Source of the DNA: a virus
Lineage: Duplodnaviria; Heunggongvirae; Uroviricota; Caudoviricetes
DNA: 64,000 nt
Virus record (IMG/VR): IMGVR_UViG_3300043399_000596
Strand: one strand, 5' to 3'
Positions 9,529 to 61,353 of this stretch are shown here, piece by piece. Made by a program: the position numbers and the translations under genes. How positions within the stretch are numbered: the stretch's first letter is position 1; the number at the start of each line of letters is the position of its first letter. The notes under the pieces were generated by a model. That model was not told where the DNA came from. It saw nothing but the letters and a program-made list of their open reading frames with translations, and did no database searches.

Positions 9529-9531
9529 ATC

Positions 9532-22960: not shown

Positions 22961-22964
22961 TTAA

Positions 22965-23351: not shown

Positions 23352-23369
23352 TTTATTCTCCTTTATAAA

Positions 23370-23840: not shown

Positions 23841-24490
23841 CAGTTGTCCCCGTTACAAATAAGATTCACTGATTGATATGGTACCTCAATTACGTATTCG
23901 CTAGCACCATCAATTGTTTGCCAGTCTTCGGCCGGCACAATTGTGATTTTGCGAGTGCCCAATGGTGGACCCATCTCTGCCTTCACAACAATTTCGCAAC
24001 TAGAGTCGCAATCTGAGGGAAGTGTGATAGTAACCGGTCCAGTACTATTAACACCAATATAATAATCATCCACCGTAGCAGTGTAGTCTTGTGATACCAG
24101 AATTCTTTGGCATTCACAAGTACACTCTCCAGGCGGACCAGGAGGTCCTGCAGGGCCTGGTTCTCCTTGAGGGCCCGGTTCTCCAGACGGTCCAGGCGGT
24201 CCTTGAGGGCCTGGAGGTCCTGGTGGACCTGGTGGACAGTCACATGGCTCATTATTAACTCCTTGATTTATAATAACAGTATCATTGCCGGGCCCCGTGT
24301 TAATAGGAGATCCGCCAGCTAATACTTGTCTTGCTTGCTCAAATATTTTAGGATCTATTGGTTCACCTGAGTTTAATTTAAGCAATGCTTGATTAAGTTC
24401 TACTAATCTACGCTCTAAGCTATTCATAATATAATCCTTATTGAAAAATAGGCGAACCTTTGTGGGTCCGCCTATTACACTACTAAACAA
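23828..24490 (-). CDS. collagen-like triple-helix repeat fibre protein
   Basis: '[36 protein letters not shown]' G-X-Y repeats; globular C-terminus shared with 22334..22960. Confidence 0.6.
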
Positions 24491-24500
24491 TAAGATTAGA

Positions 24501-25256
24501 TTATCTTACGTTGTTGCTTGTAGAGGATTGACCAACGCCAGCCATTGTGCCGAAGTTAACCATTCCTTGACGAGTTTCTTGTAGTTGACTCTGGAAAGCC
24601 TGAATCTGAGATTGTAGTTGTGCCCACTGACCTTGGAAGCCTGCTTGAATCTGGTTGAAACGAGCATCGTCCCAACGATCACGATAGTGACGGCGATCTT
24701 GTTCACTATTGACCAACTCTGTATTACGCTCAACTAAGCCACGGTTTAGATCGTGATACTTGAGATCATTGATTAGGTCACGAGTCTTTTCGTTCTCGTG
24801 ACTAATCTTGTCAGACAAGTATGTTGTCTGCTTGGCTAGTTCTGCTTGATTCTTGAGAGCTTGAATTTCTGTATCCTTAGTTACACCTAAGAATCCAGTA
24901 ACCATTGCCTGTTGTGCTGAAATGATTTGAGCACGGATGTCCTGTGTATCACGACCAATGTCGAAGAAACGAGCAGCAACTTTTGCGTCATGCTCAACCA
25001 GTCTGTCTGTTACACGATCGCCTTGATTGCCAACACGCTCACCGATATCGTATCGAGCGTCTTTGACATCACCACGAATGTTGAAAGATTCTTTTAAACC
25101 TTCCTTAACGATTTCGTTAGTTCCTCTTAGAACATCTGCATTAACACGGTCAAAACCTTTCATGTTTTCCAACTGAATTGTTGCGCGGTGCTCTGCTGCC
25201 TCACGGCGAATATCTGCATGTTGACCTGCTAAGTAATTTGTATCTACGTCTGCCAT
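24501..25256 (-). CDS. hypothetical protein (Q-rich C-terminus, coiled-coil-like)
   Basis: ORF track. Confidence 0.45.
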
Positions 25257-29354: not shown

Positions 29355-30692
29355 ATGTCCGCAAGCTGGATTAATAAACTTAACGAGTCCGATAGCCGTC
29401 TTCATAAAGAGGACGTACTCAAACAAGCACTTGAGGCATGTGTGCTTGGTTCAACCAATGCTCAAATCTTTCTGGGTTTAGTCAAAGCCTGTTATAATCC
29501 CTTTATTACATTCGGTGTACGAAAAGTACCAGACACAATTGGTATCACCGGTGCAGAAAATCCTTGGCATGAATATAATGACTTGTTGATTAAACTCAGT
29601 AAGCGAGAACTTACTGGTAATGCCGCATTGACTGCCATTGATAATATTTCCGAGCGTTTTGACAGCGAAGAATGGAATAAATTCTGTGCTCCTGTCATTC
29701 GCCGAGACCTTCGTGCGGGCATTTCTGACAAAACTATCAACAAAATCTGTAAGAAAACTGAATACGAGATTCCAATCTTTGGTTGTCAACTTGCGACTAA
29801 TAGCGAAGGTCGTCCCGAAATGAAGGGCATTAAACGACTTGAACCCAAGTTGGATGGTGTACGTGTATTGTTGATGGTTATTCACAGTGATGACGGTGAG
29901 GTCATTACTACATGCTACAGCCGTAATGGTAAAGTATTTGAGAACTTTACCCACATTGAAAAACAAATCCAAGACAACTTTGTTAAGTTGGTTCGCAAAG
30001 CCGCAACCAGTAATCTTAGTATGGGGTTTGTCCTCGACGGAGAAGTGATCGGTAATACTTTCCAAGAACTTATGCGACAAGCACGCCGCAAAGAAAACGT
30101 ACAAGCTGAGGATAGTGTGTTCAATATCTTTGACATTATCCCACTAGCTGACTTCCGTCGAGGATACTGGAATGCACAACTTGATAAACGTATCAAAATC
30201 CTAGAAGATATGCGTAGTGTAATTGACACTATGCCCAACGTTGAACTGTTGCCCCACATCATGGTTGACCTCGACACTGCCGCAGGCCGTGACCAACTAA
30301 ATCGATATGCCAAAGATCAAGTGAACGCAGGGTTCGAGGGCATTATGATTAAGGATACTGGCGCTCCTTATGAGTGCAAGCGTAATACGTTTTGGATGAA
30401 ATGGAAGCCTACTATTACTGTTGACTTGACTGTTGTAGGTCTTGAAGAAGGTACTGGTCGCAATCAAGGTCGTCTTGGTGCTCTTGTGTGTGAAGGTACC
30501 GATGACGGTAAATTCATTCAAGTAAATGTTGGTAGTGGTTATAGTGACGAGGATCGTGACAGTTACTGGGCTAACAGCAACCTGATTGTTGGTCGCACTG
30601 CTGAGGTGTTGTGTGATGTGATTACACAGAACCAAGATGGTAGTTACAGCCTCAGATTCCCTCGCTTTGTTCGATTCCGTGATGACAAATAA
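29355..30692 (+). CDS. ATP-dependent DNA ligase
   Basis: Motif I 'KLDGVRVLL' (adenylation Lys), motif IV 'EGIMIKD', motif V 'WMKWKP'. Confidence 0.8.
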   Translation: MSASWINKLNESDSRLHKEDVLKQALEACVLGSTNAQIFLGLVKACYNPFITFGVRKVPDTIGITGAENPWHEYNDLLIKLSKRELTGNAALTAIDNISERFDSEEWNKFCAPVIRRDLRAGISDKTINKICKKTEYEIPIFGCQLATNSEGRPEMKGIKRLEPKLDGVRVLLMVIHSDDGEVITTCYSRNGKVFENFTHIEKQIQDNFVKLVRKAATSNLSMGFVLDGEVIGNTFQELMRQARRKENVQAEDSVFNIFDIIPLADFRRGYWNAQLDKRIKILEDMRSVIDTMPNVELLPHIMVDLDTAAGRDQLNRYAKDQVNAGFEGIMIKDTGAPYECKRNTFWMKWKPTITVDLTVVGLEEGTGRNQGRLGALVCEGTDDGKFIQVNVGSGYSDEDRDSYWANSNLIVGRTAEVLCDVITQNQDGSYSLRFPRFVRFRDDK

Positions 30693-31580: not shown

Positions 31581-32426
31581 ATGTTTATGTTAATCGTTGC
31601 CGCTCTGCTTGCTATCGTCATTGCAGTGGGCGTTTATGTTCTCTTTGAGAAAAGTAAATTGGGTATTCTCGGTGGCGCACTGTTGTTTATTGTTGTGCTA
31701 TTGTTCGAATCCTTCACTGTTGTGCCAGGTGGTCATGTAGGCGTGCAAGTTACGCTAGGTAAAATTAATCCTGAGGCACTACAAGAAGGTGCTCAACTTG
31801 TGAACCCTATCTCAAGTGTCCGTAACGTTGATGTTCGACTACAACGTGCTGAATTGAAAAACGCAAGTGCAGGTACCAAAGACTTGCAACAAGTTCACAC
31901 TGATATTGTAGTTAACTTCCGTCTTAGTGGTAACAAGGTCCCTCACATCTACAAAGAATTCGGCTTGAATGTGGATGACAAGGTTCTTGGCCCTGCACTG
32001 AATGAATCATTCAAGGCAGTGACTGCAAAGTATACCAGCGAAGAATTGATTACTAAACGTGACGAGGTTCGACAAGCAATTACTACACAAATTGCTAACA
32101 AAGTCGCACCCTTCGACATTGATATCAGTAACGTCAGTTTGGTAAACTTTGGTTTCAGTGTTGAATATCAGAAGGCTATTGAAGCGAAAGTTACTGCTAC
32201 TCAGGCTAAGCTGAAGGCTGAGCAAGACTTAGAACGTATTAAAGTTGAGGCCGCAAGTCGTATTGCACAAGCTGAAGGTGAAGCTAAAGCTATTGCGATT
32301 CAAGCGCAGGCTATTCAAAGTAATGGGGGTCAAGCGTATGTTCAACTGCAAGCAATTGAAAAGTGGGACGGTAAACTTCCAAACACTATGCTTGGTAACT
32401 CTACTCCGTTTGTAAACATTAAGTAA
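31581..32426 (+). CDS. SPFH/Band-7 (prohibitin/HflC-like) membrane protein
   Basis: N-terminal TM, then 'VVPGGHVGVQVTLGKINPEALQEGAQLVNPISSVRNVDVRLQRAE' PHB domain and a coiled-coil C-terminus. Confidence 0.75.
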   Translation: MFMLIVAALLAIVIAVGVYVLFEKSKLGILGGALLFIVVLLFESFTVVPGGHVGVQVTLGKINPEALQEGAQLVNPISSVRNVDVRLQRAELKNASAGTKDLQQVHTDIVVNFRLSGNKVPHIYKEFGLNVDDKVLGPALNESFKAVTAKYTSEELITKRDEVRQAITTQIANKVAPFDIDISNVSLVNFGFSVEYQKAIEAKVTATQAKLKAEQDLERIKVEAASRIAQAEGEAKAIAIQAQAIQSNGGQAYVQLQAIEKWDGKLPNTMLGNSTPFVNIK

Positions 32427-33204: not shown

Positions 33205-34713
33205 ATGTTTAAAAAATATATCAGTTTCTCTAACGTAACACTGTTAGTAGCACTATCATTAAGTACAGTAGCAGCCTATTACAGTATTATAGGTTTAACC
33301 GCAATCTTTGCAGGTGCGGTTATTCCTATTATTGTTATGGGTTCTATACTAGAAATAGGTAAAATTACCACTACAGTTTGGTTGAGAAAGTACTGGCATC
33401 GTGCAAGTATTACTCTGAAACTATATCTGGTGCCCGCAGTGGTACTTCTTGCCTTCTTGACCAGCATGGGTATCTTTGGTTTCTTATCCAAGGCTCATAG
33501 TGACCAAAGTTTAGTCAGCGGAGATGTTCTATCAAAGTTGGAAATATACGAACAAAAGATTAGTACTGCAAAAGAAAATATTCAAAGCCTTAGAAACGAA
33601 CTCAAACAAATGGATGCCGCCGTGGATCAAGTCATGGCACGTAGTACCACAGAACAAGGCGCCGACAAATCAAACACGATTCGTAAAAGCCAGCAACGTG
33701 ATAGAAATAGAATTAACAAAGAGATTGAAGCCAATCAAAAACTAATTGCTTCGTTGAATGACCAAGCTGCACCTATTCGTGCAGAAGTCAGAAAAGTTGA
33801 AGCCGAAGTGGGTCCAATCAAATACATTGCGGCATTTATATACGGTGACAATCCTGACACCAATTTACTAGAGGCTGCAGTTAGATGGGTTATTATTCTT
33901 ATTGTTATAGTGTTCGACCCGTTGGCTATTGCACTAGTTTTGGCTGCTAACGCTAGCAAAGAATGGGACAAAGAAGAATCTGACAGTGATAAGCCCGATC
34001 CCTGGATAGCTGACGTAGGTGAAAAACCAACAGCCGAAGAAATAAAAAGCTATGAACAAGATGACGGTCCATTAACAACTGAACAGTTAACTCAACTTAA
34101 GGATTCAGTAATTGAACCGGATAACTCATCTCCATCTAAGGATCCTGCACCCATAGGATGGATGTTTGGTTCCTTAATACCAACAAAGAAAAAGAATAAG
34201 AAAACCAAAAAATCAAAACCCACAAAGCAACCAGTACAAGAACAAGTTGAAGAAATCAAGTCAGATCCAGAGCCAATCCTAGCAGAATCTTCTAGTCCAG
34301 AAAGACCCGGAGATTATATTGAAACTAATATTGAAACTAAAGTGCCTGTTATCATTAACACAGGTGATGGCTATGTGACATACAACGGTAAGCAAATGAA
34401 AGAAAGTGTTGCCCGTTCAATTGACCCAAAATTATTTCAAAACTACGATAAACAAATAGGCGACGGATTCGGTACGACTTTTCCTTTAATAGCAGAATCT
34501 GGTAACATTTTTGTAAAAACAGACTCGATACCCAATAAAGTATTCAAATTCAACGGAAGAAAATGGATTGAAATCCAAAAAGATACTACTTCTTCTTACT
34601 TAACCGAAAAATACGTAGAATTTTTAATTAATAAGATTTCTTCGGGTGAATATGATATTGAATTGTTAACAGATGTTGAACAAGATACTATCCAAAATTA
34701 CATGAAAAAATAA
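33205..34713 (+). CDS. multi-TM membrane protein with coiled-coil and Lys-rich linker
   Basis: Three N-terminal hydrophobic helices, coiled coil, a fourth TM, 'KKKNKKTKKSKPTKQP'. Confidence 0.4.
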   Translation: MFKKYISFSNVTLLVALSLSTVAAYYSIIGLTAIFAGAVIPIIVMGSILEIGKITTTVWLRKYWHRASITLKLYLVPAVVLLAFLTSMGIFGFLSKAHSDQSLVSGDVLSKLEIYEQKISTAKENIQSLRNELKQMDAAVDQVMARSTTEQGADKSNTIRKSQQRDRNRINKEIEANQKLIASLNDQAAPIRAEVRKVEAEVGPIKYIAAFIYGDNPDTNLLEAAVRWVIILIVIVFDPLAIALVLAANASKEWDKEESDSDKPDPWIADVGEKPTAEEIKSYEQDDGPLTTEQLTQLKDSVIEPDNSSPSKDPAPIGWMFGSLIPTKKKNKKTKKSKPTKQPVQEQVEEIKSDPEPILAESSSPERPGDYIETNIETKVPVIINTGDGYVTYNGKQMKESVARSIDPKLFQNYDKQIGDGFGTTFPLIAESGNIFVKTDSIPNKVFKFNGRKWIEIQKDTTSSYLTEKYVEFLINKISSGEYDIELLTDVEQDTIQNYMKK

Positions 34714-34791
34714 CGCTGCCCAAAACTATTGTCTAAAAATAGACCTTATCATACAATCATTACATCAACAACTCTACCTATTAAGGTTTTT

Positions 34792-35415
34792 ATGAAAACT
34801 GCTCTTTCAATTGTTTTTTGTTCAATTGTATTAACTGCATGCGGGTCCGCACCAGTTGCTAATATTGATGAACCGATCCGAAATCAAAAATTGTCTACTA
34901 ATTTTACGGAAGACGGAGTTAAGATCGAGACCGACTGTGCTTGGTATAAGTTTTGGAAATCTAAGTGTGAGATTGTAGCTATCGAATCAGTTGGCACGAC
35001 ATGGACTAACGGTGCATCGATTGTTCAAGTCAATGAAGCACGTAAGGTAGCTAGAATGGAAGCAGGTGCAAACGTAGCACACTTTCTAAATGAAAAAATT
35101 ACTAGTACACGTGTCACTAATGTTGTCGCAAAGCACATTGAAAAGGCCAGAGACTCTTATGAAACTTCTGGTCAAGGCGAAAGCTACATGACTGACAAAG
35201 AAGCAACACAAACCAATAAAGGTTTGCGTGAAAATTCTAACGATACTGCTAGAACTATCACCCGTACCATCAAAGCGGAAGCCGAAACTATTCTGCGAGG
35301 CTTTAGAACAGTTAGTGAACAACGTACAGGTAATCAAGAAATTTCTGTAACTATTCGTTGGGAACGTAACAGCGATACTTCTATTCGTCAACTTTACAAA
35401 ACGCTGAACCGATGA
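34792..35415 (+). CDS. lipoprotein
   Basis: Internal start 'MKTALSIVFCSIVLTACGS' with LTAC lipobox. Confidence 0.45.
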   Translation: MKTALSIVFCSIVLTACGSAPVANIDEPIRNQKLSTNFTEDGVKIETDCAWYKFWKSKCEIVAIESVGTTWTNGASIVQVNEARKVARMEAGANVAHFLNEKITSTRVTNVVAKHIEKARDSYETSGQGESYMTDKEATQTNKGLRENSNDTARTITRTIKAEAETILRGFRTVSEQRTGNQEISVTIRWERNSDTSIRQLYKTLNR

Positions 35416-36392
35416 AGTGGGTTGCCGTACTCATCGCTATAGTTGCAACATCTTTTTCTACACCCAGTTACTCAACAACTTCAAATGAATATGTTCGGGT
35501 AACTGGTAAAGGTGTTACTAGCAGACAAGCCAAAGAAGAAGGCTTCCAAACAGCAATCGAACTTGCTGTAGGTACATTGATTGTCTCTGACAAAAAAGTT
35601 GTAAATAATAAGCTAATTCGCCAAGATATCGGGGCTCATAGTGCTGGCTATATTTTAGACTTCGTTATTATAACTGAATCGCAGACTCATACCGGTGAGT
35701 TTATCATAGTGATGGACGTCAAAGTTCATACCAGTAAAATACACCAGCGGTTGCTAAGTACTGGTAATAATAGTAGTTCAGTAAACGGAGACAAGTTATT
35801 TGAACAATACAGAACCTACAACGAAAGTAAAGATAGCGCACATAAGATTTTCGACCAAATAATGATGGAATACCCTAGCAAAGCCTTTGTTGTTACGAAT
35901 CCGAAAATTAATTGCGGTGATCCAACCCGAGGAAGTTTTTGCTTTAAGCTAACTAATACCGGTAACGCAGTTTTGCAAATTCCCTACACTGTTCGATGGA
36001 ACTACAATTTCCTACTTGCACTACATGAAGTATTACAACATGTAAGTGACCAAGGTAATCAGGGCGAGAAGTTTACTATCATTAGTAAAGCTCCTGGAAG
36101 TATATTCGGTAGTACTGTACATTATAATTTCAATGATACCCAAAGACTACGACAGATTAAGTCTAAGTTTTTAGGTGATGTGTATGTACACGCAAAGGTA
36201 CTAGACCATCAAGGAACAACTTTATATAATACATGTGCTGTTGCATATTCAGTGCCGCATATAGATTATCGTGGGTTTATTATACAAGGTAACGCCCAAG
36301 ATTCAGAATCTATGTTCATAGAAATAGACAGAAGTGATAAAATTTCTAGGGCGCATCAAATTGATTTGTCGGTAAGCCGCACTAGATGCTAA
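35412..36392 (+). CDS. secreted protein
   Basis: Signal peptide 'MKWVAVLIAIVATSFSTPSYS'. Confidence 0.4.
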   Translation: MKWVAVLIAIVATSFSTPSYSTTSNEYVRVTGKGVTSRQAKEEGFQTAIELAVGTLIVSDKKVVNNKLIRQDIGAHSAGYILDFVIITESQTHTGEFIIVMDVKVHTSKIHQRLLSTGNNSSSVNGDKLFEQYRTYNESKDSAHKIFDQIMMEYPSKAFVVTNPKINCGDPTRGSFCFKLTNTGNAVLQIPYTVRWNYNFLLALHEVLQHVSDQGNQGEKFTIISKAPGSIFGSTVHYNFNDTQRLRQIKSKFLGDVYVHAKVLDHQGTTLYNTCAVAYSVPHIDYRGFIIQGNAQDSESMFIEIDRSDKISRAHQIDLSVSRTRC

Positions 36393-36443: not shown

Positions 36444-37640
36444 ATGTCCGAAGAACTAAAACCAATCAATCATTGCAGTTTTTGCGGTAACAGCAAAGAT
36501 GTAGTTAAAAAATTAATTGTGGGTGATAACGTTGCCATTTGTAGCGACTGTGTTTCATTGTGTGAGGATCTTATACAAGATGATCAATCCATAAAAGAAG
36601 ATACATTGCCAGAGTATTACCCAGACAAAATTAAAAGTTATTTAGATACTCACATCATAGGGCAAGATGATGCCAAAATGGTGCTAAGTGTTGCTATAGC
36701 TAACCACTATAAGAGAATTACTAACCCACCCAAAAATCTTGAAATGCAAAAGGGCAATGTATTAATATTAGGGCCAACTGGTTCCGGTAAAACGTTGTTG
36801 GCGAAAACTGCGGCAAAATATCTACAAGTACCATTTGTAATTGCTGATGCTACTAGTTTAACCGAAGCAGGATATGTAGGTGATGATGTAGAATCCATGA
36901 TTAATATGCTACTAAATGCTGCAGGTGGTGATAAGGCCCTTGCAGAACGCGGTATTGTTTTCATCGATGAGATTGACAAAATTGCCCGCAAAGGAGAATC
37001 GACTAGTATTACCCGTGATGTATCAGGTGAGGGAGTACAACAAGCATTACTTAAACTTGTTGAGGGAACTATTTGTAGAGTTTCTGGTCAAGGTGGGAGA
37101 AAACACCCAGGAGCAGATATGTTAGAAATTGATACTAAAAACATTCTGTTTATTGCCGGTGGTGCTTTTGTAGGATTGAAAGAACTGGTGCAAAAACGTA
37201 AAGACGGTGGAAGTATCGGTTTCAGTGCTACTGTTAAAGACGTTAAACTAGAAGGTTCGTTGAAGGAAGTTACTCCCGATGATCTTACTAAATTTGGCAT
37301 GATTCCAGAATTCATCGGTAGATTTACTACAACAGTGAGTATTGATGAATTGTCGAAGGAACAATTAGTCAAAATTCTCACTGACGTTAAAAACAATTAT
37401 ATCAGTCAATATTCGTACTTGTTTGAACTAGACGGAATTGAGTTGACATTCACCCCTGATGCTTTAGAACAAATTGCAGAAAATACGCTAAGTTTAAAAA
37501 CAGGTGCACGTGGATTACATACAGAAATCGAACGAGTATTAATGTGTCATATGTATAATACTAGAATATATAAAGAAAATAACATAAAAACACTAAATAT
37601 TACAAAGGAGCAGGTTATTAACCCTACAATATTAATATGA
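36444..37640 (+). CDS. clpX: ATP-dependent Clp protease ATP-binding subunit ClpX
   Basis: N-terminal C4 zinc finger 'CSFCGNS...CSDCVSLC', Walker A '[13 protein letters not shown]', '[10 protein letters not shown]' Walker B. Confidence 0.9.
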
Positions 37641-37855
37641 CAAAAGGAAGACGAGTACAAGTGCATGACGGAAACTGGGAAAAGGCACTAAGAAAATTAA
37701 AAAAGAAAATCACTGACACGGGTTTACTACAGGAACTAAAAGATAGACAAGAATTTGTTAAACCCGCAGTAAAAAGAAAAATTGCAAAAAACCAAGCAGT
37801 CCGTCGTTGGAAAAAACACTTGCGTGACCAGCAGCTTCCTCCCAAACTATTCTAA
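37637..37855 (+). CDS. rpsU: 30S ribosomal protein S21
   Basis: 72 aa basic; '[20 protein letters not shown]...[26 protein letters not shown]' matches S21. Confidence 0.7.
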
Positions 37856-37963
37856 CCTAAATAGTTGTATATTTTACACAATCAAATAAAATAGATATAA
37901 TTATATAGATGCTAAACAGGTCTATATCTTTATAAAATTCTTGCTTAATTAAAGGAGAACACA

Positions 37964-39850
37964 ATGAGCAAAGTCATCGGTATCGATTTGGGTACCACAA
38001 ATTCATGCGTAGCCGTTATTGAAAACGGCGTTTCAAAAATCATCGAAAACAGCGAAGGTGCACGTACTACCCCTAGTATCGTTGCATATACTAGTGACGA
38101 AGTTTTAGTCGGTGCTAGTGCTAAACGTCAAGCTGTGACAAATCCTAAAAATACAATCTATGCGGCTAAGCGTTTGATAGGTCGTAAGTTTAAAGAAGAA
38201 GCAGTTCAAAAAGATATTGACTTAATGCCATACACTATTGTTGAAAATAGCAACGGTGATGCATGGATCAAGGCACAAGACAAAAAACTTGCACCTCCTC
38301 AAGTATCTGCTGAGGTTCTTCGCAAGATGAAAAAGACTGCGGAAGATTATTTGGGGCATGAAGTAACTCAAGCAGTTATTACAGTTCCCGCATACTTTAA
38401 CGACAGTCAACGTCAAGCTACTAAAGATGCAGGTCGTATAGCAGGTCTAGAGGTTCTACGTATTATTAATGAACCAACTGCGGCTGCTCTAGCATACGGT
38501 GTAGACAAACAAGATACAAAAGACCGAAAAATTGCAGTGTATGATTTAGGTGGCGGTACTTTTGACGTTTCCATTATCGAGATTGCAAACGTTGATGGCG
38601 ATAAACAAATTGAAGTTCTTTCAACAAACGGTGACACATTCCTTGGCGGTGAAGACTTTGACCAACGCATTATGGACTTCTTGGTTGATACCTTTAAACA
38701 AGAACAAGGTATTGACTTGACTAAAGATGTATTGGCACTACAGCGTTTAAAAGAGGCTGCAGAAAAGGCAAAGATTGAATTGTCTAGTTCTGCACAGACA
38801 GACGTTAACTTGCCCTACATTACTGCTGATGCAACAGGACCTAAACATTTAAACATTAAAATCACTCGTGCTAAGTTGGAAAGTTTAGTTGACGAGTTGA
38901 TTCAACGTAGTATTAAACCTTGTAAACAAGCACTTCAGGATGCTGGTGTTACTGTCAGTGAAATCGATGAAGTTATTCTCGTCGGTGGTATGACACGTAT
39001 GCCTAAGGTACAAGAAGTTGTAGAACAGTTGTTTGGTAAAGCACCTCGTAAGGATGTTAACCCAGACGAAGCTGTAGCCGCAGGCGCCGCTATTCAAGGT
39101 AGTGTTTTATCCGGAGACAGAAAAGACGTTCTATTACTTGATGTTACACCACTAAGTTTGGGTATCGAAACAATGGGCGGTGTGTTTACTAAGTTAATTC
39201 AAAAGAACACAACTATTCCAACTAAAGCTAGTCAGACATTCTCTACTGCTGACGACAATCAACCTGCAGTAGATATTAAAGTCGGTCAAGGTGAGCGTGA
39301 ATTGTTTAAGTACAACAAACTATTAGGTGAGTTTAAACTTGACGGTATTGCGCCCGCGCCACGCGGAATGCCCCAGATTGAAGTTACCTTTGATATTGAT
39401 GCTAACGGTATCATGCATATTTCTGCAAGAGACAAAGGTACAGGTAAAGAAAACAAAATCACTATTAAGAGTGACAGCGGACTTCATGAAGCAGAAATTC
39501 AACGAATGGTCCGTGAAGCGGAAGAAAATGCAGAAGCTGATAAAAAGATGGTTGAACTCATTCAAGCACGTAATCATGCAGAATCAGTGTTGAATAATTA
39601 CAGCAATGATTATAAGAAGTTCAAGGATCAAATCACATCTGAAGAAAGTGAAAAGATTCAAACTGCAATCGATGCATGTGAAGTTGCTATTGCGGGAGAC
39701 AATACTGAAGCTATTCAGCAATCAGTAAACGATCTACATCAGGCAATCGGACCTGTGCTTGTTAAGAAGCAAGAGTCTGAGGGTTCTGGAAAGAATACAC
39801 AGTCAGTAGATGAGACTGTAGTAGATGCAGAAGTAAAAGAATCTGCGTAA
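37964..39850 (+). CDS. dnaK: molecular chaperone DnaK (Hsp70)
   Basis: '[16 protein letters not shown]', '[12 protein letters not shown]', '[14 protein letters not shown]'; 628 aa full length; SD 'aaaggagaacacaATG'. Confidence 0.95.
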
Positions 39851-39912
39851 TTTGTATCGGGTGCTGCATGGGGCAGGCCCGATATTCATTCTTGCTTTTT
39901 AAGGAGAAAACA

Positions 39913-40359
39913 ATGACAAGAGAATTATCACTACGTTCTACAGATATTCCAAATATCCACAAATTCGGTATAGGATTTGATTCAATGTTCGATGAACTGC
40001 TACGTGCAGCATCAGCACAAACACAGGGAAACTATCCACCCTATAATGTAATCAAAACAGGGGAAGAAACTGTATTGATTGAGGTTGCTGTGGCAGGCTT
40101 CAATGAAGGGGAAATAAGTATCACTGTGGAAAATAGTGTACTGAATATTTCAGGAGAACATGTACACACTGAAGGTGCAAATTGGGAGTATTTTCATCGA
40201 GGATTGAGCCGAAGAAACTTTAAGCAAAAATTTACTCTTGCGGAGCACGTAGAAGTAATCAATGCAGAAATTCTTAACGGCATTTTGAACATTTCGCTGG
40301 AAAGAAAGATTCCGGAAGAAAAGAAACCGAAAAACATTGCAATTAAGTACAATAAATAA
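39913..40359 (+). CDS. Hsp20/alpha-crystallin small heat-shock protein (IbpA-like)
   Basis: SD 'aaggagaaaacaATG'; 'GNYPPYNVIKTGEETVLIEVAVAGFNEGEISITVENSVLNISGEH' alpha-crystallin domain. Confidence 0.8.
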   Translation: MTRELSLRSTDIPNIHKFGIGFDSMFDELLRAASAQTQGNYPPYNVIKTGEETVLIEVAVAGFNEGEISITVENSVLNISGEHVHTEGANWEYFHRGLSRRNFKQKFTLAEHVEVINAEILNGILNISLERKIPEEKKPKNIAIKYNK

Positions 40360-40424
40360 TATAATCAATCTATATTAAATACGTGTGCAAGTGACCCTTG
40401 CACACATTCTTGAGATTAAATATC

Positions 40425-40730
40425 ATGCCACAAACTGATTCTAAAGTAACAATTAAACCAAACTTAAAAGTCAACGAACCGCCTATGTTTAAAGTAATCT
40501 ATATGAATGATGACTTTACCACTATGGAGTTTGTTGTCTCTAGTCTTATCGATCACTTCAATTATACCATAGATACCGCATCGCATATCACTAGCGGTAT
40601 TCACGAATCAGGAAGTGCAGTAGTTGCTGTATTACCCTTTGAAATCGCAGAACAAAAAGGCATGGAAGTAACATTAGAGGCGAGAGATCAAGGATTCCCA
40701 CTTCAAGTTAAAATTGAAGCAGAATCTTAA
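40425..40730 (+). CDS. clpS: ATP-dependent Clp protease adaptor ClpS
   Basis: 'PPMFKVIYMNDDFTTMEFVVSSL' aligns with E. coli ClpS '[23 protein letters not shown]'. Confidence 0.75.
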   Translation: MPQTDSKVTIKPNLKVNEPPMFKVIYMNDDFTTMEFVVSSLIDHFNYTIDTASHITSGIHESGSAVVAVLPFEIAEQKGMEVTLEARDQGFPLQVKIEAES

Positions 40731-41422
40731 ATCTTTATCTCTATACGCTTGGGATAATAGGGATCTCTGTCAAATTTAGAATTATTTACATACTTGACAC
40801 CGTTAATCACGGTGTCAACCATTTTATTATCAGAACCGTATACCCATATTGTAACTTTTTTCTCAGTGTCTTTATCTAAAACACTACCTGCATAGAAATC
40901 GTCAGTATTTGGTTCTTTCTCCTTAAAGAACAGTTCTTTAAGAGGAATACAATTGCTTATTAAGACAATCTTTCTCACATCATTGTGTAATTGAAGTTTT
41001 TCCAGAGTCTTTTCTAGATAGTTTATATCTTCATACTTGAACAGTTTCTGTTGGAAATCAATCATTTCACTAAAGTCAAAATATTTTTCTTGCCAACCGT
41101 TTATACCTACTATAGCAATACCATCAATAACTACCACGTTGTTATGTAAATAAATTACGTTTCTATAGTTTGAACAAATACTCTGTATTTCTTTTATCTT
41201 GGTATCCCTAGATATAGAATATTCATTCTCTAATGTACCATCAATAAAAAACACCCCATGGTATAAACCGCTGAGGTGTCTTAAAGTCCTGTGTAAAACA
41301 CCTATATCATTAGATATATTACCGGATAACACACAAAACAAACTTGTGGGTTTACCAGTCCAATTGAACTCGGATTCGGACGTTAACTGTAGGTCGCTAA
41401 GTAAATCAAACCCGAAGATCAT
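40727..41422 (-). CDS. hypothetical protein (possible calcineurin-like metallophosphoesterase)
   Basis: Weak resemblance only ('VLSGNISND', 'FIDGTLENEYS'). Confidence 0.3.
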   Translation of the reverse strand: MIFGFDLLSDLQLTSESEFNWTGKPTSLFCVLSGNISNDIGVLHRTLRHLSGLYHGVFFIDGTLENEYSISRDTKIKEIQSICSNYRNVIYLHNNVVVIDGIAIVGINGWQEKYFDFSEMIDFQQKLFKYEDINYLEKTLEKLQLHNDVRKIVLISNCIPLKELFFKEKEPNTDDFYAGSVLDKDTEKKVTIWVYGSDNKMVDTVINGVKYVNNSKFDRDPYYPKRIEIKI

Positions 41423-41437
41423 TGGTTAATTGAAAAA

Positions 41438-41770
41438 TTACTCTTTAGGTTTGCTAGCTTTTGGCTTTGCCGTTCTTGCTGCAGGCTTTTTAGCTCCACC
41501 GGTGGCTTTTGGCTTAGCTGCCTTTTTAGCAGGTTTTTTAGCTTTTTCTGCTACTTCTGCTACAGGTGCTGCTGCAACCTTATTTGGATTGTCAGCATGT
41601 GTCGCCCACTCAGTTTCAGATAACTTATGCAACCCAACACAGTATCCTGTAGGACTACGGCCGCAGCCACATTTCACAGGTTCAGGCTGCTTTGGTGTTT
41701 CCACCTTATATGGTGCCTGCGGGGCAGCAGTATCTGCAATTCCGAATAGTTTCTTTAAAAAATTAAACAT
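41438..41770 (-). CDS. histone H1-like basic protein with N-terminal Cys/His knuckle
   Basis: Strong SD on the minus strand ('aaggagaacattATG'); 'CGCGRSPTGYCVGLH'; C-terminus 'AEKAKKPAKKAAKPKATGGAKKPAARTAKPKASKPKE'. Confidence 0.55.
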   Translation of the reverse strand: MFNFLKKLFGIADTAAPQAPYKVETPKQPEPVKCGCGRSPTGYCVGLHKLSETEWATHADNPNKVAAAPVAEVAEKAKKPAKKAAKPKATGGAKKPAARTAKPKASKPKE

Positions 41771-41842
41771 AATGTTCTCCTTATCATACTATTTAGATAT
41801 TTTATACAGAATGGTATTTTTTATATTGTACTAAATAATAGT

Positions 41843-42334
41843 ATGGCATACACCGATCTAACTTTGCGAGAGTTAATGGAGTTACCGTTACCCTCTTATA
41901 CTGAGCAAAAAAGATTGTATTTTAGGCCATCACCTCGACAAATTCATCATGTTTATGAGTTAATTAACTATCACGTTTTTAACAATAAACTCAGAAAACC
42001 AAGACTAATAATTGCCCCTAGAAGACAAAAATATTGGGGGATGTGCATCGGCAATATAGAGATGCAAAAAACAGGAAGTTACTGTGATATAGAGTTAATG
42101 GATAAGTGGATAAGTGTTCAATGGATGGTAGCCACACTAGCGCACGAAATGGTTCATCAATATCAATGGGATATTCTAGGCCCGCAACGATATGATGAAG
42201 GTAAACCATTTTTAATGAGTCATGGGCCTTCATTCTTCAGTTTTAAAGACAAATTAGAAGATCATTTTATACCATTAAAGACTGCACACAGTCAGCGTAA
42301 ATGGTACAAACATCAAGATTTATTTAAAACCTAA
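41843..42334 (+). CDS. SprT/Wss1-like zinc metalloprotease
   Basis: HExxH in 'MVATLAHEMVHQYQWD'. Confidence 0.5.
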   Translation: MAYTDLTLRELMELPLPSYTEQKRLYFRPSPRQIHHVYELINYHVFNNKLRKPRLIIAPRRQKYWGMCIGNIEMQKTGSYCDIELMDKWISVQWMVATLAHEMVHQYQWDILGPQRYDEGKPFLMSHGPSFFSFKDKLEDHFIPLKTAHSQRKWYKHQDLFKT

Positions 42335-42353
42335 TATGTCATAAATACATATT

Positions 42354-43910
42354 ATGCGTGATATTTTAGATAAACTTACCCTATTAATTGAAGCTACTGG
42401 GCTAGCAGGAAGAAAACCCGGAGACCCCTTTCAAAACGATGCTGGGGAAACCATTACATTTAACAATATTCAATTCTTTCCTGAAGGTGGCGGGAGATAT
42501 GAACCCGAAGAACTCGACCAAGCAATCGCACAAGTATCTAAACAGATACCCAACATTCAATGGCAAAACGCAAAAACTACTAGGGCAGGTGGTTTTGCTC
42601 TAATCACATTTGATACTAAAAGTGGTCCTACAACAATAGGTCGTTATCTAAACGATGTAAAAGCTGATCCTGTACAGAATACAATTGATAACAAATTTGT
42701 AATGAACGGTCAGAATTGGAAGTTTGCTAGTAAATCAGCTAAGAAAGAACAATCAGGATTATCACCGTTAGACTTATTGACTGACAGAGATTTGCAAACC
42801 ATACCCGGCATCATGAATCAACTTGCCAAAAGTTTAGGAACAAGTCATCCATTGTACGCAGTCGCACACAAAGTTGCTATAGGTGAGCCGTTACCTATGT
42901 CATTCAAAGCACCTAAAGACATACCATTTGCTGCTTTCCGTGATTATTTCTGTGAGATATTACAGCCCATTGCATTGCAAAAAGGACAATTCAATGGTAA
43001 TGCTATGGATGCGGCCGAAAGATTTTTAGATGGATCCTTTGAAGATACGTTGATTACATTCGGTGCAACAAAAACAGGTGGTTTGACTGACAGTGTTATA
43101 AGCACTAAAGACGGAAAAACTTTGCTTATTAGTAGCAAAGGTGGTAAAGGTGCAGAAGCAAGTGCTAAAAACTTGTATGATGAGGTTCAGAAATTAAAAA
43201 CTAATCCTACTGGACAAAAGTTTTTAAAGAAGTATGCTAAAGAAGTTCAACTATTAGATGACATGATTGGTGCTGGTATGCACGGAGCTCCATTGAAACT
43301 AGCAGTAGATGAGGGTCTGATTGATGCAGAAGAAGCTGAACAAGTTAAAGCATTGCGAAACTTACCTAAAATAGATTTAGAGAATGTAGGTGGACTAAAA
43401 TTGTCTGCTAAATTAAAGAACCTAGCAAAATCTAGAAAGACAAAAAATCCCACTTCAGTTAACATCTACATGCACTTAATCGCTGCGATTGCACATAAAG
43501 TAGCTGAACACGTAAATGCAACAACTAATTTCCCTAAAGCTGCTGCTGACATTTTAAACAACGGAGCACTAGTTCAGGTCTACACAAAAGCGAATGAGGG
43601 AAAAGATCAATGGACTTTAAACGAATTCAAAACAGTTTATCCAAGTGATGCAATTAAAGGTGTGTTTTTGAGTGCTGGTAAAAATTACTCCAGTACTGAA
43701 ATCAAGGGTAACTTCACTTTCTTAATTGACCAAGGACAAGGTAAACCCAAAGCTAGTTCGGGTGATGATGCTCCAGAATCTACAGTAGAACCAAGCAAGA
43801 CACAGGATACTGATGATTTGGCAAAAGCTGCATCTGATATTACGGAACCTAGATCCAAACGAAAGCCACAAGCAACTTCTGGAATAGGTAGAGAAAAACG
43901 AGCCAAATAA
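42354..43910 (+). CDS. hypothetical protein (518 aa)
   Basis: ORF track; no motif recognised. Confidence 0.45.
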   Translation: MRDILDKLTLLIEATGLAGRKPGDPFQNDAGETITFNNIQFFPEGGGRYEPEELDQAIAQVSKQIPNIQWQNAKTTRAGGFALITFDTKSGPTTIGRYLNDVKADPVQNTIDNKFVMNGQNWKFASKSAKKEQSGLSPLDLLTDRDLQTIPGIMNQLAKSLGTSHPLYAVAHKVAIGEPLPMSFKAPKDIPFAAFRDYFCEILQPIALQKGQFNGNAMDAAERFLDGSFEDTLITFGATKTGGLTDSVISTKDGKTLLISSKGGKGAEASAKNLYDEVQKLKTNPTGQKFLKKYAKEVQLLDDMIGAGMHGAPLKLAVDEGLIDAEEAEQVKALRNLPKIDLENVGGLKLSAKLKNLAKSRKTKNPTSVNIYMHLIAAIAHKVAEHVNATTNFPKAAADILNNGALVQVYTKANEGKDQWTLNEFKTVYPSDAIKGVFLSAGKNYSSTEIKGNFTFLIDQGQGKPKASSGDDAPESTVEPSKTQDTDDLAKAASDITEPRSKRKPQATSGIGREKRAK

Positions 43911-43964
43911 GTTGACTTCCTACATAAAAACTGTATAATAGTTTTTATTTTACAAAGGAAGTTT

Positions 43965-44585
43965 ATGAGTCTAGTTCCAATCGTTGTCGAACAAACTGCA
44001 AAGGGTGAGCGTAGTTATGACATTTACAGCCGCCTATTGCGTGACCGTGTTGTCATGCTTGAAGGTGAAGTTCATGACCAAATGGCAAATTTGATTGTTG
44101 CCCAATTGCTTTTCCTAGAATCAGAAAACCCCGACAAAGATATTAGCATGTATATCAACAGCCCAGGTGGTCAAGTAACTGCTGGTCTAGCAATCTATGA
44201 TACGATGCAATTTATTAAGTGTGATGTTCAAACTATCGTATTGGGTCAGGCTTGTAGCATGGGTTCGTTCCTAGCACAAGCAGGTGCTAAGGGCAAACGA
44301 TTTGTTCTCCCAGAAGCACGTACTATGATTCACCGTGTTAGTTCTGGTACTCCTAGTACACGAGGTAGTGTTCATGTACAAGAACTTCAATTTGAAGATG
44401 CCAAGCGCACATTTGAAGAAAGTCAACGTATTAACAAACGTTTGACCGAACTCTATGTGAAGCACAACTCCGCAGGTAAGTCTTACGAAGAATTGTTTGA
44501 AACCATGAAGTTTGATACATTCTTGTCAGCACAGGAAGCGGTTGATTGGGGTCTCGCAGACAAAGTGGTCGAGAAGCGAGAGTAA
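43965..44585 (+). CDS. clpP: ATP-dependent Clp protease proteolytic subunit ClpP
   Basis: '[21 protein letters not shown]', active-site Ser in '[10 protein letters not shown]', His in '[10 protein letters not shown]'. Confidence 0.9.
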
Positions 44586-44603: not shown

Positions 44604-44628
44604 GCTCCGCGAGTCGGGGCTTTTTTTT
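44604..44628 (+). terminator. rho-independent terminator after clpP
   Basis: 'gctccgcgagtcggggc' hairpin followed by T8. Confidence 0.6.
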
Positions 44629-47378: not shown

Positions 47379-47638
47379 ACCAACGAATTTATGAACTTCG
47401 GTGCAAGGCTCAAGAGGCCGCGGCTGAGGCTTTTCCTGGCGATGTGCCATTTGACCCAAATCCCGATCCAATACTGTGGGACAGGATTCATTCAAGTTAT
47501 GAATTGTTCGCCCAGTTGATTGTCCAACGGACATTGGATATCATTGAAGCACACACTGAAATTTTTCAAAGTGCCGAAGCAAAAGCCATGGTTGAACATA
47601 TTAAACAATCTGTAAAAACTGATTTTGGGATTGATTAA
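47375..47638 (+). CDS. hypothetical small protein
   Basis: ORF track. Confidence 0.4.
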
Positions 47639-48144
47639 AGATAGGACCAACCATCTTTATTGACAGAGCACCTGTATCGGATGCCTTCACTGGTTATATG
47701 ATACGCATTTGCGGCATCTATTAACTTATTGAATATCGTACCGTCAGGTGCTACACATCCTTTAACTCTCCAAGTTTGAGTACGACCTAGCATTTTGTCT
47801 CTGATTTTCTTTTTATGATCCTCAGACCTTTTTGCTCCAGTGGCACCATCCCCTCCATCAGATTTATTGCGTAATATACCGGTATTAATATCTTTTCTTC
47901 CATACCATTTAATTAATCTACGCTCAATTGCTAATGCACCAATATCAGTTAAATTGGACTCTATTATTATAATTTTATTAATATTAACCGGCGGATAAAC
48001 CTCACCTTTTCCTTTAATCCAGGCTCTTTTACCTAAACCTTTTCCGATATAATATGGGGTATTATCTTGTCTCAGATATGCGTAAACATAGAATCCGTTG
48101 GGCGGATTTGATTTTGAATAAATATTCATGCTGATGCTCCTCAA
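47635..48144 (-). mobile_element. GIY-YIG homing endonuclease gene (free-standing HEG), antisense to the surrounding early genes
   Basis: '[26 protein letters not shown]' GIY-YIG core plus a basic C-terminal DNA-binding region; the only minus-strand gene in a plus-strand array. Confidence 0.75.
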
Positions 48145-52026: not shown

Positions 52027-52578
52027 TCACAAATGTCTACCCCAACGGGTGTTGATGTGAGACCAATTCATTATCTTCCAGGTATTTTCTAGATATTCTT
52101 TTTTATCAGCTAGGTAATCAAGTGTCCAGGCATGTTCCCACCAGTCAACTAAAATTAATATGTCGTCACGAACTTCATGGTTTACGATTGTCTTTATTTC
52201 ACCGGTAAACGACATATATATCCAAGCAGAACCCTGAAGTTTCAATGCTTCTTCTTTGAATACTTCTTTGAAGTCACGCCACCATCCGTACTTTCTTTTT
52301 ATAAGATTCAGTACGGGTCCGTTAGGGGTATTATTTTCTTGTGGCTTACGAAACTGTGAAAAGTAGATATTATGTAGGAAAGCGCCAGCGTAATTAAAAT
52401 CGCTGTCGCCTTCTTTGTTCTTGTAACGTTTAACATACCCCTTTGCTAGGGTATCGTAATGTAATTCTAAAGTGGCTTTAGAAAGTACCGGACTTAGATC
52501 GGTGTAGGAATATTGGAGTGGTTCTAACTCTATCTGTTTCCTTCGGGATTCTTCTAATTTCTCTACAACGTCATACAT
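52027..52578 (-). CDS. Fe/Mn superoxide dismutase
   Basis: 'LEPLQYSYTDLSPVLSKATLELHYDTLAKGYV' and 'DWWEHAWTLDY' Fe/Mn-SOD signatures. Confidence 0.8.
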   Translation of the reverse strand: MYDVVEKLEESRRKQIELEPLQYSYTDLSPVLSKATLELHYDTLAKGYVKRYKNKEGDSDFNYAGAFLHNIYFSQFRKPQENNTPNGPVLNLIKRKYGWWRDFKEVFKEEALKLQGSAWIYMSFTGEIKTIVNHEVRDDILILVDWWEHAWTLDYLADKKEYLENTWKIMNWSHINTRWGRHL

Positions 52579-52592: not shown

Positions 52593-52808
52593 TCAGCGAC
52601 GGCGCGTGATACGACCTTTTGTCAAGTCATATGGACTAAATTCAATTTCTACCGTGTCTCCTAGTAGAATCTTAATATCATGTTGCCGCATTTTGCCAGA
52701 GATATACCCCATAATAACGTTATCTCCGGGCATCTTGACCCTGAACATTGCATTGGGTAAAACTTCAGTTACTACCCCGTCCATTTTAAAACCTTCTTCT
52801 TTTGCCAT
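52593..52808 (-). CDS. infA: translation initiation factor IF-1
   Basis: 'DGVVTEVLPNAMFRVKMPGDNVIMGYISGKMRQHDIKILLGDTVEIEFSPYDLTKGRI' nearly collinear with E. coli InfA. Confidence 0.8.
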   Translation of the reverse strand: MAKEEGFKMDGVVTEVLPNAMFRVKMPGDNVIMGYISGKMRQHDIKILLGDTVEIEFSPYDLTKGRITRRR

Positions 52809-55823: not shown

Positions 55824-56369
55824 ATGAAACCAAGAATTATAATAGGCTTTCTTATGATGATGATTACGGCAGCTATTGCTGCACCATTGGGTGATTATCA
55901 GTTCAAAAGCCCATCATTTAACGGACAGGGATACAGTTCCCACACCCTAACGATTTATAACCTAGAACAACAAGCCGAAAAAGCTCGTGCTGACGCCGTA
56001 CAGGCTGCAATAGATAAAGCAGCATCAGCGCAAAATAGCACCAATTTACTGAAGTTCATAAACAACTTAGAAAGTCGTATATACGCACAAATTTCCCAAA
56101 ACGTAGCGACTGCTATGTTTGCTAACAATCAATGCAATACGTCAGATGCTACTACTAATTGTTCCGGGCAGATAAATTTCCAAGGAAATTATATTGGTTG
56201 GAGCAGAGTCAGTGACGCTAGTAACTGTGTAGGATCTCCAAATGGAACTTGCATTTTAATGAAAATCGGTGATAATACCGCTACTAACCCAGCAAGTGCA
56301 TTATGCACAGATATAGGAATGAGTTGTATATACATTCCTTTGTCTAGTTTTCAAATACCGGGGAACTAA
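55824..56369 (+). CDS. csgF: CsgF-like curli assembly protein (secreted)
   Basis: Signal peptide then 'DYQFKSPSFNGQG', matching the CsgF N-terminal 'TFQFRNPNFGGNP' CsgG-plugging motif; 'LLKFINNLESRIYAQISQ' ~ 'LDNFTQAIQSQILGG'. Confidence 0.5.
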   Translation: MKPRIIIGFLMMMITAAIAAPLGDYQFKSPSFNGQGYSSHTLTIYNLEQQAEKARADAVQAAIDKAASAQNSTNLLKFINNLESRIYAQISQNVATAMFANNQCNTSDATTNCSGQINFQGNYIGWSRVSDASNCVGSPNGTCILMKIGDNTATNPASALCTDIGMSCIYIPLSSFQIPGN

Positions 56370-56372
56370 TGT

Positions 56373-57170: not shown

Positions 57171-57206
57171 TAACAAAAAGATGCATAAGCATCCGGGAGA
57201 ACTAAA

Positions 57207-58157: not shown

Positions 58158-58158
58158 C

Positions 58159-60527: not shown

Positions 60528-60570
60528 AACTAGATTTATATATTACACTAAATATAGTAAAGGAGAAATT

Positions 60571-61104: not shown

Positions 61105-61108
61105 AATT

Positions 61109-61315: not shown

Positions 61316-61318
61316 TAT

Positions 61319-61340: not shown

Positions 61341-61353
61341 ATAGGAGAAAGTT

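Follow-up and report, generated by a model that had tools for sequence, protein, structure and literature searches.

Why would a virus carry an unfoldase, its partner protease, chaperones, a protease adaptor and a ribosomal protein side by side? The question is raised by positions 36444-44585 of the IMG/VR virus record IMGVR_UViG_3300043399_000596 (Caudoviricetes), of which the window, that is, the whole stretch of DNA analysed here, covers 64,000 nucleotides. An earlier note, made by a model from the letters alone, had described this interval as a phage-encoded proteostasis and translation module. Judged by gene order and protein similarity, the block is a syntenic unit with deep conservation across a very large clade of jumbo phages, most of them uncultured, and the contig comes from a jumbo phage that is a distant relative of Pseudomonas phage PA5oct. 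The reading that we favor, with a probability of roughly 75%, is that the block of this environmental jumbo myovirus, whose distant relative PA5oct belongs to the Arenbergviridae and the 'group 2.2' or Rak2-like assemblage, is vertically inherited and serves protein quality control and translation.

The interval holds ten open reading frames (ORFs), and all those named earlier lie where they had been placed. Family identity was assigned by profile searches of Pfam, NCBIfam (with its curated cut-offs) and PHROG. The features of the block are as follows.

36444..37640, plus strand: clpX, AAA+ unfoldase with an N-terminal C4 zinc finger (Pfam zf-C4_ClpX, AAA_2 and ClpB_D2-small)
37637..37855, plus strand: bS21 gene, its start overlapping the clpX stop (ATGA) (PF01165, 54 bits versus 27)
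37873..37901, plus strand: sigma-70-like promoter candidate upstream of dnaK, in the S21-dnaK spacer (TTTACA-17-TATAAT, 11/12; pattern match)
37964..39850, plus strand: dnaK, full-length Hsp70 (Pfam HSP70, 862 bits)
39868..40359, plus strand: Hsp20, small heat-shock protein of the alpha-crystallin family (PF00011, 62 bits versus 20.8)
40398..40730, plus strand: clpS, N-degron adaptor (PF02617, 84 bits)
40727..41422, minus strand: putative metallophosphoesterase of 231 amino acids (PHROG 1649, E 8e-7, weak)
41438..41770, minus strand: protein of 110 amino acids with a CxCx7Cx3H motif and a Lys/Ala/Pro-rich basic tail (no family match in Pfam, PHROG or NCBIfam)
41843..42334, plus strand: SprT-like zinc metalloprotease (PF10263, 25.4 bits versus a cut-off of 25.6; HExxH present as HEMVH)
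42354..43910, plus strand: fast-evolving protein of 518 amino acids (u518), whose core may be PD-(D/E)xK nuclease-like and whose basic C-terminus is disordered
43912..43939, plus strand: sigma-70-like promoter candidate upstream of clpP (TTGACT-16-TATAAT, 11/12 match; pattern match)
43965..44585, plus strand: clpP, serine protease subunit of the PA5oct-like 'type A' (PF00574, 225 bits versus 20.2)
44604..44628, plus strand: intrinsic-terminator-like hairpin, GCTCCGCGAGTCGGGGC then T8 (pattern match)

ClpX relatives are encoded on 345 IMG/VR contigs, and the occupancy counts come from the best 80 of them, with ClpX identities of 68-79%. The order in all 80 is ClpX, S21, an optional DnaK, Hsp20, ClpS, the reverse-oriented phosphoesterase, SprT, an optional variable gene and ClpP. 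Hsp20 is found in 78 of the 80, ClpS in 76, the phosphoesterase in 75 (always in the same position and orientation), S21 in 70, ClpP in 65, SprT in 59, DnaK in 26, a recognizable u518 in 16 and the 110-amino-acid gene in 3. ClpX, ClpS and ClpP are 68-85% identical across the relatives. Apart from the minus-strand members, the genes are co-oriented, tightly packed and conserved. The family matches lie well above chance, which bears out the grouping of ClpX, S21, DnaK, Hsp20, ClpS and ClpP in one block. The described end of the block also holds, as the terminator-like hairpin (stem 44604-44620, T8 after it) lies 19 nucleotides past the clpP stop. The two 'minus-strand inserts' of the same description are indeed on the minus strand, but the phosphoesterase is a conserved member and only the 110-amino-acid gene is sporadic.

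Three genes just upstream of clpX (33205-36392, plus strand) are co-conserved in 55-73 of the 80 relatives. They encode a 502-amino-acid multi-pass membrane and coiled-coil protein, a 228-amino-acid protein with a lipobox-like LTAC signal and a 326-amino-acid protein with a signal peptide, and none of the three has an informative family match. Two of the loci compared (L135 and L148) belong to a single contig of 524,565 bp, IMGVR_UViG_3300027749_002876, which carries two different whole ClpX blocks about 400 kb apart, one with DnaK and the other without. Rather than a 524-kb genome, this is probably a chimera in which two related phage genomes were joined.

Is the contig viral at all? It could be bacterial, a chromosomal island or prophage remnant with ordinary host housekeeping copies, and the bacterial-looking genes in the window (curli CsgF/CsgG, a FecR-domain protein, a CHASE2 cyclase and a superoxide dismutase) would suit this idea, as would the lack of hallmark capsid and terminase genes. 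The gene order is nevertheless unlike the bacterial tig-clpP-clpX-lon and grpE/dnaK-dnaJ arrangements, and block neighbors were found beside none of 80 bacterial dnaK loci. All close relatives are viral contigs of IMG/VR, the longest reaching ~360 kb, and those of ~350-360 kb include IMGVR_UViG_3300042549_004104 and 3300046787_000200. The block is syntenic with PA5oct, nine window genes having homologues inside a single 12.6-kb PA5oct segment, and the closest cultured ClpP, at 64% protein identity, is that of PA5oct and its relatives. A megablast search of the block against 50,697 phage records gave zero nucleotide matches, so that relatives are detectable at the protein level only. The region is flanked by tail-fiber-like and homing-endonuclease-like genes, and the window also holds genes for collagen-like proteins, an ATP-dependent DNA ligase and a 5'-3' exonuclease. 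The window has a uniform GC content of ~38% and contains no tRNA or rRNA genes in its 64 kb. Even the curli and CHASE2 genes recur on a 202-kb viral contig (L318). Because the block is syntenic with cultured PA5oct and with hundreds of IMG/VR contigs, we regard the contig as viral; a bacterial origin, which the earlier note had named as a possible refutation, is extremely improbable. A freshwater-type betaproteobacterium, from the order Burkholderiales, is the probable host.

Several observations weigh against the favored reading. The window has no capsid, portal or terminase genes, and its viral origin therefore rests on its relatives, on synteny and on the tail-fiber-like genes. Genes for ClpA, DnaJ and GrpE were found neither in the 64-kb window nor, in 160 viral loci, at distances of up to 10 kb from the block; the DnaJ and GrpE searches were made by tblastn with the E. 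coli proteins and PA5oct DnaJ. Two viral scans, one with PA5oct ClpA and the other with ClpA from a contig that carries a window-type ClpP, each recovered at least 592 ClpA relatives, and none of the top 80 contigs is shared with the ClpX-block contigs. The SprT-like score is marginally below the Pfam cut-off. Finally, the block contains genes without an obvious proteostasis role (the phosphoesterase and the nuclease-like u518), and the word 'module' may overstate its functional unity.

The unfoldase and the protease themselves appear to be intact. ClpX exceeds the cut-offs of the NCBIfam equivalog NF003745 (510 bits versus 359) and of TIGR00382 (484 versus 371), and its zinc-binding domain scores 51 bits with PF06689. 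It is 51% identical to E. coli ClpX, and in the alignment C11, C14, C33 and C36 match the E. coli cysteines. The Walker A and B motifs, the pore-1 GYVG, the RKH loop and the sensor-2 arginine (GARGL) are all retained. The IGF loop, a site singled out for checking in the earlier note, reads S-I-G-F where E. coli has G-I-G-F; the ClpP-docking motif is thus kept, and ClpX shows no inactivating changes. Since it is only about 50% identical to the ClpX of E. coli and of other jumbo phages, and 42% to that of PA5oct, ClpX is not a recent capture.

The S21 protein also clears its family threshold (TIGR00030, 46.8 versus a cut-off of 28.95). Its ORF overlaps that of clpX in 71 of 71 related loci and in PA5oct, and the two genes are predicted to be translationally coupled in all 71. 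A second translation-initiation gene lies 8 kb from the block and encodes a 71-amino-acid IF-1 homologue (52593-52808, minus strand; PF01176, 76.9 bits versus a cut-off of 30.2), whose relatives adjoin ClpA in 10 other viral loci.

ClpP passes the NCBIfam subfamily model NF001368 (263 versus a cut-off of 249) and falls below the strict equivalog TIGR00493 (244 bits versus 309), probably because of a 10-amino-acid insertion. The insertion follows the catalytic histidine in the handle region, is common to PA5oct and is missing in E. coli ClpP and in a second phage type, type B. The triad S98/H123/D184 aligns with the E. coli triad and is kept in 146 of 146 related phage ClpPs. The protein has no propeptide, its axial N-terminal loop is conserved, and it is 56% identical to E. 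coli ClpP. No inactivating substitution of the kind the earlier note had raised is present, and by their motifs ClpX and ClpP make up the complete ClpXP that it had claimed. The motifs TTGAC and TATAATA, reported for PA5oct promoters (PMC7318152), are similar to those of the promoter candidate upstream of clpP; promoter-like sites in total are not above shuffle expectation.

Two types of ClpP occupy the same slot among the relatives, one with the 10-amino-acid insertion (A) and one without it (B). Type A occurs in the window, in two of the compared loci (L014 and L022), in PA5oct and on ~600 contigs, and it is 56% identical to the E. coli protein. Most ClpX-block contigs have type B, with 63% identity to E. 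coli and 53% to PA5oct. Comparison of the two sets of loci (L082-L161 versus L001-L080) indicates that the types are non-orthologous. Eleven loci have an extra, very divergent ClpP paralogue (24-30% identity), mostly flanking a u518 homologue. At one locus (L097, 8565-9087), type A clpP is found in two fragments, residues 1-103 and 156-205, for which an insertion, a frameshift or an assembly error is possible.

Could ClpP, possibly together with ClpX, serve virion morphogenesis instead, whether as a protease that matures heads or removes scaffold or as a protein packaged into the virion? RefSeq labels the PA5oct, Atu_ph07 and Paride orthologues 'head maturation protease', the PA5oct ClpP record notes detection from purified particles by tandem mass spectrometry with electrospray ionization, and many phages use ClpP-fold prohead proteases. 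The profile scores point elsewhere, however: against the 263 bits on the cellular ClpP subfamily model stand 81 bits on the head-maturation model NF045542, which does not reach its cut-off of 120. The identity to E. coli ClpP and the conserved axial loop likewise favor a cellular-type enzyme, and the genes around it are for ClpX, ClpS and chaperones, not for portal or capsid. For the prohead, PA5oct has a separate T4-like protease, gp152, and seven 'virion-unrelated enzymes' are on its mass-spectrometry list (PMC7318152). The prohead protease assignment was rejected on the NF045542 score and on gp152. By these comparisons the protein is a bona fide ClpP, and a morphogenetic role is quite improbable.

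DnaK provides the clearest record of ancestry in the block. It scores 981 on the NCBIfam model NF001413 (cut-off 648) and 915 on TIGR02350 (cut-off 823), and its architecture of nucleotide-binding domain, linker, substrate-binding domain and lid is complete. It is 66% identical to E. coli DnaK, and the two proteins agree at 20 of 20 positions checked for catalysis, the linker, substrate binding and DnaJ contact, among them K70, E171, D194, T199, D201, the linker, M404, F426, A429 and V436. Architecture, scores and residues together uphold the claim of a full-length DnaK. The DnaJ-contact residues R167, N170 and T173 are conserved, which makes the use of host co-chaperones plausible. Of the 26 loci with this optional gene, 25 (all but L101) have it between S21 and Hsp20.

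Relationships were examined over DnaK residues 1-500, with a neighbor-joining tree of 28 phage sequences, including that of the window, and 50 bootstraps. Identity to the window copy is 85-91% for the 27 other phage DnaKs. Among bacterial DnaKs the highest values are 80-81%, all in Burkholderiales (Paracidovorax, Rubrivivax, Polaromonas, Variovorax, Limnohabitans and Polynucleobacter), and gammaproteobacterial DnaKs are ~74% identical. The 28 phage DnaKs are monophyletic in 50 of 50 bootstraps and are sister to the Burkholderiales clade. This topology indicates that a betaproteobacterial host lineage was the source of one old capture, after which the gene was inherited, lost or recombined among phages. 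Of the phylogenies proposed earlier to tell phage-lineage copies from recent host captures, that of DnaK was run and indicates an old phage-lineage copy; for ClpX the same conclusion was drawn from identity. Some short contigs of metagenome-assembled genomes, with 76-80% DnaK identity, were considered as mis-binned phage and rejected, as they match other Burkholderiales over the same 500 residues and do not carry the block neighbors. The DnaK clade is a host-lineage marker, for Burkholderiales, in an otherwise host-less phage group.

An optional gene of clearly betaproteobacterial ancestry invites another explanation, namely that host 'auxiliary' genes, captured recently and lacking an integrated function, came together by chance as a loose set in a hyperplastic region. 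The bacterial-like type B ClpP, 63% identical to E. coli, and the sporadic 110-amino-acid gene would fit such an origin. Yet the core order of ClpX, S21, Hsp20, ClpS, phosphoesterase, (SprT) and ClpP is kept as far as PA5oct, where identity has dropped to 42% for ClpX and 26% for Hsp20, and the clpX/S21 overlap is invariant. Moreover, the monophyletic phage DnaK is identical to no host copy, and ClpX is as distant from E. coli ClpX as from those of Atu_ph07, phage G and Phosso, at ~50% identity. A chance collection of recent captures is very improbable, and a vertically inherited block accounts better for these observations.

The remaining chaperone and the adaptor are recognizable members of their families, with scores below the stricter models. 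Hsp20 resembles IbpA with 120 bits where the equivalog cut-off is 212, and is not an IbpA/IbpB equivalog. ClpS scores 74 against an NCBIfam equivalog cut-off of 112. The true start of clpS is likely the ATG at 40425, which gives the 101-amino-acid product called on an identical Logan contig. The ClpS pocket is conserved, with NDDFTTMEF and His69 aligned to E. coli N34, D35, D36, T38, M40 and H66. Residues aligned to E. coli E79, E82 and K84, which we take to be contacts with the N-domain of ClpA, are also conserved.

Where, then, are the partners of ClpS and DnaK? The earlier remark that no clpA is present and that DnaK appears without DnaJ or GrpE is true of the window, and need not extend to the whole genome, since PA5oct encodes both DnaJ (gp297) and ClpA (gp298) ~12 kb beyond clpP. 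Two contigs carry both ClpA and type A ClpP, 30-40 kb apart and in a different architecture. ClpA is conserved in Rak2-like jumbo phages (PMC6102473). The partner of ClpS would be either a phage ClpA elsewhere in the genome or the ClpA of the host.

The part of the block between clpS and clpP is the least uniform. The 231-amino-acid phosphoesterase candidate has no Pfam or NCBIfam match. The 110-amino-acid ORF had been called histone H1-like, a label that comes solely from the composition of its Lys/Ala/Pro-rich C-terminal tail; besides the three ClpX-set loci, the gene occurs in two ClpP-set loci. The 518-amino-acid ORF, one fifth of the interval, was missed by the earlier note. It has 773 unannotated homologues, one JGI contig of 95.8 kb encodes an identical protein, and identity within the family ranges from 24 to 83%. 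An AlphaFold2 model has a mean predicted local distance difference test score of 79.6. The invariant residues E201, D246 and S260-x-K262 fit an E...D...(D/E)xK motif, and the protein is tentatively nuclease-like, with a weak restriction-endonuclease-like fold. A profile search against PDB sequences gave spurious antibody-framework matches only. The u518 family fills the slot between SprT and ClpP in at least 37 related loci, and others have a minus-strand ORF of ~370 amino acids there. With u518 in it, the 3' half of the block would seem to serve more than proteostasis.

This variable slot bears on a further explanation, that the main job of the block is counter-defense or host takeover, in which ClpXP, ClpS-ClpAP and SprT selectively degrade host proteins of defense, regulation or stress and the chaperones are secondary. 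The patchily distributed jumbo-phage peptidases (ClpP, ClpS and SprT-like) have been argued to target, probably, host proteins (PMC7824862), and a fast-evolving u518 fixed beside clpP, together with the swapping of two ClpP types, is compatible with an arms race. On the other hand, ClpX, ClpS and ClpP are highly conserved, as expected for housekeeping-like machines, and by weak evidence the fast-evolving neighbor is nuclease-like rather than adaptor-like. Counter-defense as the principal function is unlikely; host-protein proteolysis is a likely additional role of a block concerned with protein quality control and translation.

How would such a block work? Hexamers of ClpX would dock by their IGF loops onto ClpP tetradecamers, which may be phage-encoded or possibly mixed with host subunits, and the complex would unfold and degrade degron-bearing proteins. 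As the RKH loop is kept, ssrA-type tags may be among the ClpX substrates. ClpS would capture proteins with destabilizing N-termini and pass them to ClpA-ClpP, with ClpA either encoded elsewhere in a phage genome of ~300-360 kb, as in PA5oct, or supplied by the host. The small heat-shock protein would hold aggregation-prone proteins, and DnaK would refold them with host DnaJ and GrpE. S21, coupled to ClpX, would enter host 30S subunits and favor phage translation. Overall, proteolysis, folding and translation would come under phage control while a very large virion proteome is made.

A more specific role is conceivable in hosts that do not grow. The Clp set, S21 and IF-1 could form a toolkit by which hosts that are starved or dormant regain protein turnover and ribosome function. 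Direct replication on deep-dormant P. aeruginosa has been reported for no phages other than relatives of PA5oct such as Paride (PMC10761892), and Paride-type relatives carry orthologous ClpP and ClpA. The clade appears to be mainly environmental, infecting Burkholderiales-type hosts that would often be nutrient-limited. ClpXP and ClpAPS could free amino acids and clear hibernation and stress factors, and S21 and IF-1 could re-arm idle 30S subunits. By analogy with these relatives the proposal deserves mention, but we hold it to be an outside chance.

Other parts of the window carry further genes. A gene set of the 7-deazaguanine and sugar-nucleotide type (193-12352, plus strand) includes GTP cyclohydrolase I (205 bits), a PTPS/QueD-like protein, a weak radical-SAM (QueE-like) match, two cytidylyltransferase-like proteins, a mannose-6-phosphate isomerase/cupin, a glycosyltransferase-like protein and an NAD-dependent epimerase; its first ORF, of 528 amino acids (193-1779), has zero family matches. 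Such a set points to hypermodified DNA, which has been reported for phages of the PA5oct type. At 21582-25256 (minus strand), a cysteine peptidase of the papain family (C1) adjoins collagen-repeat (GPP/GPQ) tail-fiber-like proteins and a Tyr/Trp/Asp-rich repeat protein. The ATP-dependent DNA ligase (29355-30692, plus strand) lies within 10 kb of clpP in 35 of 80 ClpP loci and also in PA5oct, and an SPFH/Band 7 membrane protein is encoded at 31581-32426 (plus strand). The ORF at 47635-48144 (minus strand) is GIY-YIG/I-TevI-type homing-endonuclease-like, with a weak match to the I-TevI DNA-binding domain; its homologues, at 54-57% identity, are scattered over unrelated ClpA loci, which fits a mobile endonuclease. 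An Fe/Mn superoxide dismutase (52027-52578, minus strand) is 47% identical to PA5oct gp261, a protein annotated as hypothetical and encoded directly after ClpS in that phage.

The far end of the window (55824-63617, plus strand) holds a curli-type secretion and fiber set, which may be more unusual on a phage contig than the Clp block. It comprises a CsgF-like protein (31 bits), CsgG (170 bits), curlin-repeat proteins (57207-58157 and 59265-60527), a FecR-domain protein (58159-59268), a DUF4337 protein (60571-61104) and a CHASE2 adenylate/guanylate cyclase (61554-63617). Homologues of CsgG, CsgF, FecR and CHASE2, at 35-49% identity, are grouped on the 202-kb contig L318, and the DUF4337 gene is widespread in unrelated contexts in the viral scan.

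For jumbo-phage biology, the block contributes nothing conceptually new. It does show that phage genes for proteolysis, chaperones and a ribosomal protein form a syntenic unit and are not scattered, with ClpX relatives on at least 345 contigs. Cultured and tractable phages, PA5oct and Paride, share the same core, and its function and substrates, the coupling of clpX and S21 and a role in non-growing hosts can be tested with them in the laboratory.

How does the block compare with known systems? The nearest is that of PA5oct (MK797984; Arenbergviridae), with its relatives MIJ3, Paride and Callisto (PA5oct gp253-gp298). The PA5oct order is FolE, QueD, ClpX (gp255), S21 (gp256), Hsp (gp259), ClpS (gp260), FtsH, ligase and ClpP (gp272), followed beyond clpP by a GroES-like protein and then by DnaJ and ClpA. 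Both phages have ClpX, an overlapping S21, Hsp20 and ClpS, then ClpP, with FolE, QueD, a superoxide dismutase-like protein and DNA ligase nearby, and their ClpPs share the insertion after the catalytic histidine. In contrast to the window, PA5oct lacks DnaK, and between its ClpS and ClpP lie FtsH, the ligase and other genes in place of SprT and u518. Its ClpX lacks the RKH loop and has MGF for IGF, whereas that of the window is canonical. Besides ClpX, identities to the window proteins are 37% for S21, 33% for ClpS and 26% for Hsp20 (gp259). The syntenic core is annotated in GenBank (MK797984) and is not discussed in the PA5oct and MIJ3 papers, nor was the timing of Clp expression found in the text or supplements of the PA5oct papers.

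More widely, jumbo phages of 'group 2.2' or the Rak2-like assemblage (Atu_ph07, GAP32, 121Q and phage G) encode ClpP, ClpX, ClpS, ClpA, SprT-like proteins, Hsp20 and DnaJ (PMC7824862; PMC6102473). The roles proposed for them include degradation of host proteins, virion assembly and keeping the host alive (PMC7824862; PMC6102473; PMC12484599), and the ClpXP of phage G is discussed in PMC12484599. In these genomes the genes are mostly dispersed (in Atu_ph07, for example, gp2 for ClpX, gp676 for ClpP and gp708 for ClpS) and DnaK is not reported, whereas here they form a compact conserved block with S21.

Full-length Hsp70 proteins are likewise found in moraphage (of Bacteroidota), Lak megaphage and huge phages (LR7565xx), which are large, mostly aquatic or gut phages, and these DnaKs too are traceable to the host phylum (PMC12619734). 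The DnaK of the freshwater moraphages comes from Flavobacteriales (PMC12619734), and the Lak and huge-phage DnaKs are 48-56% identical to that of the window. As the window DnaK is sister to Burkholderiales DnaK, it represents an independent acquisition. Unlike the other phage DnaKs, it is embedded in a Clp/S21 block, with no DnaJ nearby.

With the ClpXP/ClpAPS and DnaK-DnaJ-GrpE systems of E. coli, the block shares the same domain architecture and all checked catalytic and interaction motifs, at identities of 56% (ClpP), 51% (ClpX), 66% (DnaK) and 34% (ClpS). It differs in having no tig-clpP-clpX-lon, clpS-clpA or dnaK-dnaJ pairing and a ClpP with the insertion and without a propeptide; ClpA, DnaJ and GrpE are not encoded in the window. 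Clp proteins, ClpS, SprT and Hsp20 in jumbo phages (PMC7824862; PMC6102473), phage DnaK and the annotated PA5oct block are thus already known. The incremental additions are a PA5oct-type block that bears DnaK, its deep conservation in an uncultured clade, the strict overlap of clpX and S21, and the exchange of ClpP types.

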